Shown: in pieces, positions 46,418 to 47,149 of the stretch
How positions within the stretch are numbered: position 1 is the first letter of the stretch
Layout of the letters: every line of letters starts with the position of its first letter
The notes under the pieces: model-generated
Seen by the model: only the letters and a program-made list of their open reading frames with translations
Database searches by the model: none
What the model was told of the DNA's origin: nothing
Position numbers and translations under genes: made by a program
IMG/VR virus record: IMGVR_UViG_2579778842_000003
Strand: one strand, 5' to 3'
Origin: a virus
Taxonomy: Duplodnaviria; Heunggongvirae; Uroviricota; Caudoviricetes
Length of the DNA stretch: 64,000 bases

Positions 46418-47149
46418 CCTCTCACTCCATTATTTAACGAATAAAAAAGCTGCGGTGCCGGGTGCCTCCCGGTGTCCTTTGGCTGGTTATCCACCGTGGA
46501 CGGGGAAACAAGGAGAAATGAATGGACTGATATAACCATTTCCCCGCGTGCGCTTAGCCGCATTCACCGCAACGGAAAGAGCATTCTTGGTGGACCTGTA
46601 GATTGGGATATGAACCCGTTACAGGAGAATGCTCTTACCTGTTACGTGCTCCGTTTCGTGGAGCTAACGGCGGGTGATCGGGCCGCACCAGGCTGGACTT
46701 ATTTCAGCGTTATGCTCATGCCAGAGAATCAAACTGTGATGGTCGGTGCTGAACTCCGACACAGGGTTGTAGCAAGCCCCGCAAAGCGCGCACTACTGTA
46801 GTTGCGGCACATCAGCCTGTGCATTCACCACAATGTTGAGAACACTGGTTGTCACGCTGCAACGCAACATTTATTCGTAGATTGGGATATGACCCCGTTA
46901 CGCCAGTGTTCTCAACGTTGTAGTGCCGGTTACGGTTCCGGCCAGGCCTCTTCCTCAACGGGGTGTTCTCCATACGGACTACCGTTTATTGGTCGTTCCT
47001 GCGGTTTATGTTGTGAAGCCAGATGCTTATCTTCTGGTTGCTTCAAAGAGCTGCACTTCATCACAACGGTAAGGGTACTTCGTAGGGATTCGAACCCTCT
47101 GCCAAGCTCGGCGATCTCCGACGTCGCAAAATACCCTTACCTGTTGTGC

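Follow-up and report, generated by a model that had tools for sequence, protein, structure and literature searches.

The window analyzed here, the whole 64,000-nucleotide (nt) stretch of IMG/VR record IMGVR_UViG_2579778842_000003, comes from a P1-type phage, and the segment at issue, near positions 46595 to 46935, had been singled out in an earlier note, made from the letters alone, as rich in repeats and upstream of a cluster of transfer RNA (tRNA) genes. The segment is non-coding and lies within an array of structured RNAs of ~1.2 kb on the minus strand, and its direct repeat is the center of a conserved, covarying RNA structure that is present twice in the window and in five phage lineages. 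The fuller proposal, in which the repeat is the invariant core of two copies of one RNA module and the module would have a role in processing or recognition, is one that we hold with moderate confidence. Over this region the window shares 100% identity with Punavirus P1 MH422554 and 99% with P1 NC_005856, and the P1 annotation places upl and plp on the plus strand here and, on the minus strand nearby, trnT, trnA, a dicF-like region, and, 5′ of these in the sense of the RNA, the C1-controlled promoter Pban. Because the tRNAs, the dicF-like region, and Pban are all minus-strand features, the segment falls within the leader of the ban operon, 3′ of the tRNAs. The placement upstream of the tRNA cluster thus holds in plus-strand coordinates only; since the tRNAs are on the minus strand, the segment is downstream of them in the direction of transcription. 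In P1, ban operon transcription from Pban would cross the array, which in RNA order consists of a DicF-like RNA, hairpin D, tRNA-Asn, tRNA-Thr, hairpin C, module B, a closed domain with a decayed tRNA-Ser-like stretch, module A, and an STnc100-like domain with a terminator, followed by protein genes.

The direct repeat, GTAGATTGGGATATGA(A/C)CCCGTTAC, is confirmed, with 24 of 25 positions identical and a spacing of 279, although the start positions first given for it were off by 1-2 bases. When up to 3 mismatches are allowed, the 19-mer GATTGGGATATGANCCCGT has only two sites in the 64 kb, both of them the repeat copies (cores 1 and 2 in the table), and none of 100 dinucleotide-preserving shuffles gave two such matches. 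The inverted repeat described around copy 2 is likewise real, but it is longer than the 18 bp reported: its arms are 23 nt each and 91% complementary, with 54 nt between them and copy 2 inside. What had been missed is that copy 1 also lies inside an inverted repeat (13/14), and that there are two further long hairpins of like build, C and D.

Read on the minus strand, the two copies are the centers of hairpin modules A and B. The module, ~90-100 nt in length, is made up of a helix of ~25 bp whose sequence is variable while its pairing is kept, an inner stem, a small asymmetric internal loop, and a hairpin of three G:C pairs carrying N-UCAU-WW. The inner core in both A and B is GUA-ACGGG(U/G)UCAUAUCCCAAUC-UAC, that is, three G:C pairs with a 7-nt loop, and core copy 1 is invariant across 69 type-A instances. 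Folding of the minus strand gives -28.2 kcal/mol for A (46570-46645; z score -6.3) and -49.2 kcal/mol for B (46820-46930; z -6.6), and the four minus-strand hairpins A through D range in z from -5.6 to -6.6 relative to shuffled sequence. Over the whole 714-nt stretch the minus strand has a z of -8.3 versus -3.5 for the plus strand.

Relatives add further evidence. When viral contigs were scanned for the core, more than 120 loci were returned, comprising P1-like A and B copies and a third type, F3, in phages other than P1. In F3 the core, the inner stem, and the second hairpin (with the same UGCA loop) are as in B, and the outer stem is completely different; this type is also found in Yersinia phage PY54 and in Yersinia alsatica. 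A further type, with the variant core GACGGGCUCAUUACCCAAUCC, was reached in Salmonella phage ST64B by way of the STnc100-like sequence discussed below, and the exact ST64B core is present in 60 viral contigs as two subtypes, S1 and S2. A covariance model, R1, built solely from 18 F3 copies in non-P1 phages and run with filters off, returned B and A as its top two matches in the 64 kb, both end to end (46.7 bits, E 4.5e-10, and 41.4 bits, E 1.2e-8, respectively), and it also matched the ST64B module at 43.1 bits. In an alignment of 60 distinct sequences from the five types (A, B, F3, S1, and S2), 94.2% of stem cells are paired, against 74.9% in shuffles and 26-50% with slid partners; compensatory changes, involving both sides, are seen in 18 of 31 pairs, double-change cells number 367 against 124 +/- 14 in shuffles, and several stem pairs occur as 3-4 different Watson-Crick types. 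Across all types the sequence ACGGG-N-UCAU-WW-CCCAAUC does not vary, and on the 5′ strand the distance between helix base and core is 26-27 nt in all five. Structure prediction and covariance across relatives, one of the checks originally proposed, find the repeats conserved and the pair changes compensatory across the five types. The original suggestion of a structured RNA is supported over coding, with the corrections that the RNA is on the strand opposite to the open reading frames (ORFs), that both copies are hairpin cores, and that the module occurs in other phage groups as well.

As to the strand, stem variants are mainly transitions that leave G-U on the minus strand, where the plus strand would have A-C; the count is 26 versus 11 pair types. 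The orientation of the modules is the same as that of the adjacent tRNAs. The reach of the motif can be stated for several collections. The 371-nt region is found in 628 plasmid records of PLSDB, and whole-module insertions and deletions are common among the relatives. F3 and S1 gave no megablast match in 5,426 complete Escherichia coli genomes, so that in E. coli only types A and B are found, on P1-like plasmids. Scanning genome contigs with a 16-base pattern proved too loose: nearly all 120 matches are chance hits in unrelated phyla, the real ones being only Yersinia alsatica (locus L173) and one P1-like contig (L209). One contig resulted from a metagenome scan for cores that do not have G three bases upstream, a requirement that excludes A and B. 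A full-text literature search for the core sequence found no paper.

The features of the array and the two annotated ORFs opposite it are collected in the table.

Table. Features of the segment and its surroundings (window coordinates; 5′ and 3′ arms are named in the sense of the RNA)
Feature	Position	Strand	Remarks
STnc100-like closed domain	46451-46571	-	directly after A; Rfam RF02076, 37.8 bits, sub-threshold
Hairpin module A	46564-46649	-	outer and inner stem around copy 1; no second inner hairpin
Outer stem of A, 3′ arm	46574-46587	-	inverted repeat I4, 14 nt, 93% complementary
Core copy 1	46598-46622	-	reads GUAACGGGUUCAUAUCCCAAUCUAC; three G:C pairs closing the 7-nt loop UUCAUAU
upl ORF	46610-46801	+	63 aa; P1 annotation; judged not a gene
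Outer stem of A, 5′ arm	46626-46639	-	I4, D2; AACAGGUAAGAG common to hairpins C and D
Closed domain after module B	46735-46832	-	UGUGGUGAAUGC...CAUCACA; read from the sequence; no Rfam match
plp ORF	46802-47179	+	125 aa; TTG start; antisense into tRNA-Thr; judged not a gene
Hairpin module B	46825-46925	-	23-bp outer stem, inner stem with copy 2, second inner hairpin
Outer stem of B, 3′ arm	46826-46848	-	I1; first arm of the inverted repeat first reported
Second inner hairpin of B	46850-46869	-	UGUUGCGU-UGCA-GCGUGACA
Core copy 2	46877-46901	-	reads GUAACGGGGUCAUAUCCCAAUCUAC
Outer stem of B, 5′ arm	46903-46925	-	I1; second arm of the inverted repeat first reported
Hairpin C	47060-47150	-	fold -41.6 kcal/mol, z -5.9; repeats D2, D4, I8
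tRNA-Thr(UGU) and tRNA-Asn(GUU)	47150-47303	-	tRNA calls; same strand as the array and directly 5′ of it
Hairpin D	47504-47589	-	outer-stem family as A and C; unrelated interior; z -5.6 (47500-47595 folded)

The module lies in operon leaders, and in three of the five types it stands directly behind a terminator. The F3 copies scanned lie a few bases after an intrinsic terminator on the same strand; in loci L010 and L056 and in PY54 they are upstream of lysis genes, in L010 also downstream of a Q-like gene, while in L029 a DNA methyltransferase gene follows the F3 copy instead of lysis genes. In related Yersinia phages, tRNAs fill the F3 slot. The S copies come right after a terminator (read by eye), in the leader that serves the genes behind the repressor gene (sb37 in ST64B, otherwise an RdgC-like gene). 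Lying just beyond a terminator, as lambda sib does, the F3 and S modules would be transcribed only when RNA polymerase reads through that terminator. No intrinsic terminator is called at A or B. A, B, and F3 continue into ...UG(U/C)GGUGAAUGC..., the start of a closed domain. In ST64B, the STnc100-like domain comes after a hairpin that has the outer stem of the A/C/D type and a different interior, and because the same domain and outer stem are paired there with another interior, helix scaffolds and apical modules are evidently shuffled among phages. The terminator hairpin before each S module (ST64B, L253 1648-1712, and L256-type loci) sequesters a strong Shine-Dalgarno-like AGGAGGAAG, and an ORF of ~50 codons runs through the S module on the same strand, in a frame that differs between S1 and S2. 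In P1, a small hairpin, GCCGGAACCGTAACCGGC, precedes module B at 46930-46948 on the minus strand; it recurs in F3 phages, on the downstream side in L029 (9150-9170) and upstream of the module in L020 and PY54, and is another shared cassette. Yersinia phage YeP3 (L251 2059-2136, minus strand) has a long hairpin of ~78 nt that does not carry the core motif, just downstream of an array of tRNA-Gly, tRNA-Met, and a pseudo-tRNA, between Q and the endolysin gene; long helices beside phage tRNA arrays may be a general feature.

Within the array itself, the modules are flanked by other structured elements. Hairpin C, of the same outer-stem family as A, begins right after the CCA end of tRNA-Thr and consists of a 13-bp acceptor-like stem around a perfect tRNA T-arm, GGGUUCGAAUCCC, together with a second small hairpin. 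Hairpin D is matched by R1 only weakly (16.5 bits) and only in the outer stem. The outer-stem sequence common to A, C, and D is AACAGGUAAG(A/G)G...; in D the family sequence reads CAACAGGUAAGGG..., and a 16-mer, GCACAACAGGTAAGGG, is exactly repeated on the minus strand at 47134-47149 and 47573-47588. Three GGAxTCGAACC motifs occur at 78-nt spacing, as if hairpin C occupied a third tRNA slot. In RCS47 (L003), JL22, and phages of the 813R1 type, the 3′ arm of hairpin C carries an insertion of ~196 nt (window 47051-47079) that adds one closed domain and one hairpin of the A/C/D outer-stem family; the inserted unit starts with CTTACCGTTGTGATGAA, and the same sequence is also found after the insertion. 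In phage D6 (L002 2138-2224) a tRNA-Ser(UGA) stands between modules B and A. The corresponding minus-strand stretch of the window, ~46650-46740, looks like a decayed tRNA, since it is diverged and aligns patchily with the D6 tRNA. The ends of the closed domain after B appear, as read from the sequence, to resemble those of the STnc100-like domain after A. This last domain is followed by a U6 run (46443-46448, read by eye), so that its end looks like an intrinsic terminator, and a 78-aa ORF comes next. The first ~35 nt of the domain (CCGTTGCGGTGAATGCGGCTAAGCGCACGCGG) recur with 91-100% identity in many other phages, including ST64B, SfV, SfII, SfIV, and phiES15.

Farther along the minus strand, 45373-46417 encodes the 78-aa protein, a membrane protein, and a 275-aa SPFH/Band 7 lipoprotein in place of the tciA-tciB-tciC genes of P1; RCS47 has the 78-aa and 275-aa genes in the same slot, and its annotation labels the latter a putative serine protease. 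On the other side, an intrinsic terminator, GCCCATCTTCGGGTGGGCGTTTTTTT, is found at 47777-47796 (minus strand), inside the counterpart of the P1 dicF-like region, and the C1 operator/Pban sequence, ATTGCTCTAATAAATTT, is at ~47955-47995 (minus strand), further upstream. With at least two terminators between Pban and ban, Pban transcripts must therefore pass these before reaching ban.

A search of the modules with Rfam 15 (4227 models) returned only shape matches, to microRNA-precursor models at 27-28 bits, where the gathering thresholds are 57-100. The F3 loci have no match at gathering, and L029 has none below it; in ST64B only the STnc100-like domain matches at E <= 0.01, and the S module is unmatched. 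The module thus matches no Rfam family and is an RNA motif outside Rfam. Several identifications were tried and rejected. ARAGORN and Rfam call only three known tRNAs and none of the hairpins A, B, C, or D; the sole match of YrlA, a Y-RNA-like family, is a pair of tRNAs. Type I and type III toxin-antitoxin RNAs, a CRISPR-repeat mimic, retron RNA, a ribozyme, a 6S-like RNA, and a Y-RNA-like RNA were all dropped, as no defining feature of any of them is present. STnc100 was also set aside as an identity for the modules, since A and B are unmatched and only the neighboring domain scores, at 37.8 bits, below the gathering value of 47 (E 5.8e-6; model positions 31-147 of 206); the positive control, STnc100 of Fels-1, reached 138.2 bits. 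That neighboring domain shares with STnc100/PasD (RF02076) the closing helix UGGUGAAU...CACC, the hairpin CCGGGAGGCACCCGG, and the terminator end. The repeat-bearing hairpin, in contrast, is not in the STnc100 model, and the 5′ part of Fels-1 STnc100 is unstructured instead. STnc100 and the modules are both found in the leaders of prophage operons, which have been described for STnc100 and PasD as hubs of small RNAs (sRNAs) (bioRxiv 10.64898/2026.05.13.724894). Judged by its neighborhood, the module belongs to these sRNA-rich leaders.

Known RNAs of other kinds offer a guide to function. RNase III processing hairpins are familiar from the T7 early mRNA sites, lambda sib, and the N leader, and the modules are like them in having helices of ~20-27 bp, interrupted by one or two mismatches, set between the functional RNAs of a long phage transcript. 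All five types share this shape, that of a candidate RNase III substrate; to our knowledge, the known RNase III sites have no invariant apical hairpin common to unrelated phages. A different parallel is the thrS operator, in which the leader RNA mimics the anticodon arm of tRNA-Thr. Here too a leader hairpin displays a 7-nt loop with an anticodon-like triplet, in this case CAU on three G:C pairs. The core agrees with the anticodon arm of the E. coli initiator tRNA (metY) at 13 of 17 positions in the P1 and F3 types and at 14 of 17 in the S type, and has three consecutive G:C pairs, a 7-nt loop, U33, and CAU; among the 127,966 17-mers of the window only 3 reach 13/17, and two of these are the cores. 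It differs from the initiator arm in that 27-43 and 28-42 are unpaired and that position 37 is U in the S type. The species 1 and 2 RNAs of T4, which are stable and co-transcribed with tRNAs, and the RNase P-processed C4 RNA of P1 are released from polycistronic phage precursors. The array resembles these in being structured, tRNA-adjacent, and non-coding, and hairpin C keeps a T-arm; on the other hand, Rfam gives no C4 or tRNA match there at E up to 10, no sequence match is seen, and the modules have no acceptor-like CCA end. By analogy, the build of the module is nearest to the RNase III hairpins of phages and to anticodon-arm mimics such as the thrS operator.

Our best guess is that processing would leave the module as a stable hairpin RNA whose anticodon-like loop is presented to a host factor, and that it would act as RNA within read-through or lytic transcripts. 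The long helix would probably serve as a double-strand-specific processing or stabilizing element of the RNase III type, separating neighboring RNAs; such a processing or insulating element is suggested because the helix is RNase III-like, because F3 and S lie beyond a terminator, and because A, B, and F3 lie before an sRNA-like domain. The invariant apical hairpin would probably be a recognition site for a factor conserved among the enterobacterial hosts (Escherichia, Yersinia, Salmonella). Because it resembles the anticodon arm of the initiator tRNA, its partner may be the ribosome or a protein that binds or cleaves tRNAs; this likeness is a lead, not a test. An extension of the idea, which we regard as speculative and unlikely, is that the module is an initiator- or CAU-type anticodon-arm mimic mounted on a rigid helix of ~25 bp, made in quantity during lytic transcription and occupying or decoying a host factor that recognizes this arm. 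Candidate targets of such a mimic would be MetRS, the P site of the 30S subunit, or an anticodon nuclease (VapC-type or other) from an abortive-infection or toxin-antitoxin system. If this were true, the mimic would be an RNA-based counter-defense or host-takeover device common to P1 and to Yersinia and Salmonella phages.

A number of observations weigh against the proposal of a conserved minus-strand RNA with a processing or recognition role. The alignment used for the pair counts was fitted to the model, which favors structure, and the five types amount to only about five independent lineages. Within types the changes are mostly one-sided, and RNAalifold applied to F3 alone finds no compensatory pair. 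Minus-strand transcription is, at this locus, inferred from the neighbors and from the P1 annotation, and the tolerance of G-T pairs would also fit a same-strand hairpin in single-stranded DNA. Apart from the antisense of the cores, no target in trans rises above shuffled sequence in the window (-21.9 versus -21.4 kcal/mol). The module is dispensable, with natural deletions arising by recombination between the two copies, and knockdown of upl, plp, and trnT by CRISPR interference had no effect on P1 plaque formation (PMC10695390). Dispensability in the laboratory, for its part, fits an accessory role.

Of the other explanations, a trans-acting RNA fares best, although we consider it doubtful. 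In this view the module, alone or as the 5′ domain of a longer RNA, would base-pair with a host or phage mRNA, and its seed would be UCAU..CCCAAUC, the invariant loop together with the 3′ flank. The sRNA-like closed domain that follows A, B, and F3 speaks for this, the more so as the domain after A is like the Hfq-associated prophage sRNA STnc100 and has a terminator, and the leaders of prophage operons are the sRNA hubs mentioned above. The YUNR U-turn is a signature of antisense loops, and the loop UUCA fits it. Half of the putative seed, however, is locked in the G:C stem, and no complementary site stands above the shuffled background in the 64-kb window.

The possibility that the hairpins are decaying tRNA remnants, or the scar of a duplication, without present function in a tRNA-rich hot spot, is unlikely. 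It would account for an array set among tRNAs, for the perfect T-arm of hairpin C, and for the diverged stretch of the window that corresponds to the D6 tRNA-Ser(UGA), and it is in keeping with the frequent gain and loss of modules, the hybrid deletions, and the non-essentiality of the region in the laboratory. Decay is difficult to reconcile with a core of 19-25 nt that stays invariant in five lineages, from Escherichia, Yersinia, and Salmonella, while the stems are replaced with full compensation, or with the constant 26-27 nt of the 5′ strand. Moreover, the core has only three pairs against the 5 bp of an anticodon stem, and neither ARAGORN nor Rfam calls a tRNA. A recombination scar, which the earlier note had offered beside structured RNA, is not the main explanation: the two copies have flanks that fold alike without any relation in sequence. 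Recombination between the copies does occur in some relatives (L014, L039, L045) and yields hybrids with the 5′ half of B, the 3′ half of A, and a single core.

That the element acts at the level of DNA, as a recombination or protein-binding site or as a single-stranded DNA hairpin such as a priming signal, is quite improbable. Many DNA sites, too, are inverted repeats around a conserved center, hairpins of single-stranded DNA can accommodate G-T pairs, the two cores do recombine with each other, and R1 picked up loxP (ATAACTTCGTATA-8 nt-TATACGAAGTTAT, at 15868-15906), a match made purely on shape. Yet the stems vary freely, which is unusual for the arms of a protein-binding site, and a DNA cruciform would be disrupted by the large insertions in the 3′ strand, either a second hairpin or a bulge of 7 nt. 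The orientation is fixed, moreover, relative to the tRNAs and to the terminators before the F3 and S copies, and in A, B, and F3 the element is fused to an sRNA-like domain.

We consider it very improbable that the module works in processive antitermination, as put of HK022 does, to carry RNA polymerase through the leader terminators. The modules do stand in leaders with intrinsic terminators before protein genes, and the ST64B stretch shown from the repressor gene to sb37 has no annotated N-like gene. But the F3 and S modules lie directly after terminators, not before them, the F3 phages have Q, and the module is a closed long helix, whereas put consists of a pair of adjacent stem-loops (~70 nt) close to the early promoter (PMC9378689). 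R1 gives no match at E <= 1 in the HK022 stretch scanned (NC_002166, 24000-40751), which should include the early and late regions and in which put, PL, and PR are not annotated.

We give equally little credence to the reading in which upl and plp are real P1 genes and the repeat is a duplicated peptide motif, VDWDM(N/T)PL. Both ORFs are annotated in NC_005856 and in RCS47, the repeat is in frame in both (VDWDMNPL and VDWDMTPL), and PHROG families exist for upl. The latter are families with no assigned function, however, and plp matches nothing in PHROG; a Pfam search with upl and plp gave no match. Variable sites are spread evenly over the three codon positions (6/12/12 in upl, 23/26/29 in plp), and the relatives carry frameshifting indels in upl and, in plp, many indels of 1-2 nt as well as the ~196-nt module insertion. 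The plp frame starts with TTG and runs antisense through tRNA-Thr, and in the F3 copies a TGA stop comes directly before the plus-strand reading of the core (IDWDMNPL). Open frames over the core on the strand of the RNA are in different phases in S1 and S2. No promoter-like site was found on either strand, hence none for upl or plp on the plus strand; the predicted upl promoters of P1 are in tciA, and the window stops aligning with P1 before tciA is reached. For 29 of the 30 rows listed from the 628 plasmid records, no coding sequence appears under the match, in a PLSDB gene table that is incomplete. Given the even codon positions, the frameshifts, the stops, the lack of a Pfam match or a promoter, and the mostly unlisted coding sequences, we conclude that upl and plp are not genes. 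The doubt first cast on these ORFs is borne out by the absence of third-position bias, the frameshifting indels, and the Pfam result.

A classic among model phages, P1 is also common as a phage-plasmid in the Enterobacteriaceae. Its genes upl and plp, long carried as hypothetical, are apparently misannotated, and what lies there seems to be an array of structured RNAs on the minus strand. The motif extends from P1-type phages, on plasmids of Escherichia, Salmonella, Shigella, and Klebsiella, to Yersinia phage PY54 and its relatives and to the ST64B-like phages of Salmonella, always in operon leaders and near tRNAs, terminators, and sRNA-like domains. It is thus a concrete candidate for a new class of phage leader RNA, in leaders that are built from interchangeable RNA cassettes, with helix scaffolds and varying apical modules. 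If the likeness to the anticodon arm should prove functional, the module would tie in with the current interest in phage tRNAs as a means of counter-defense.

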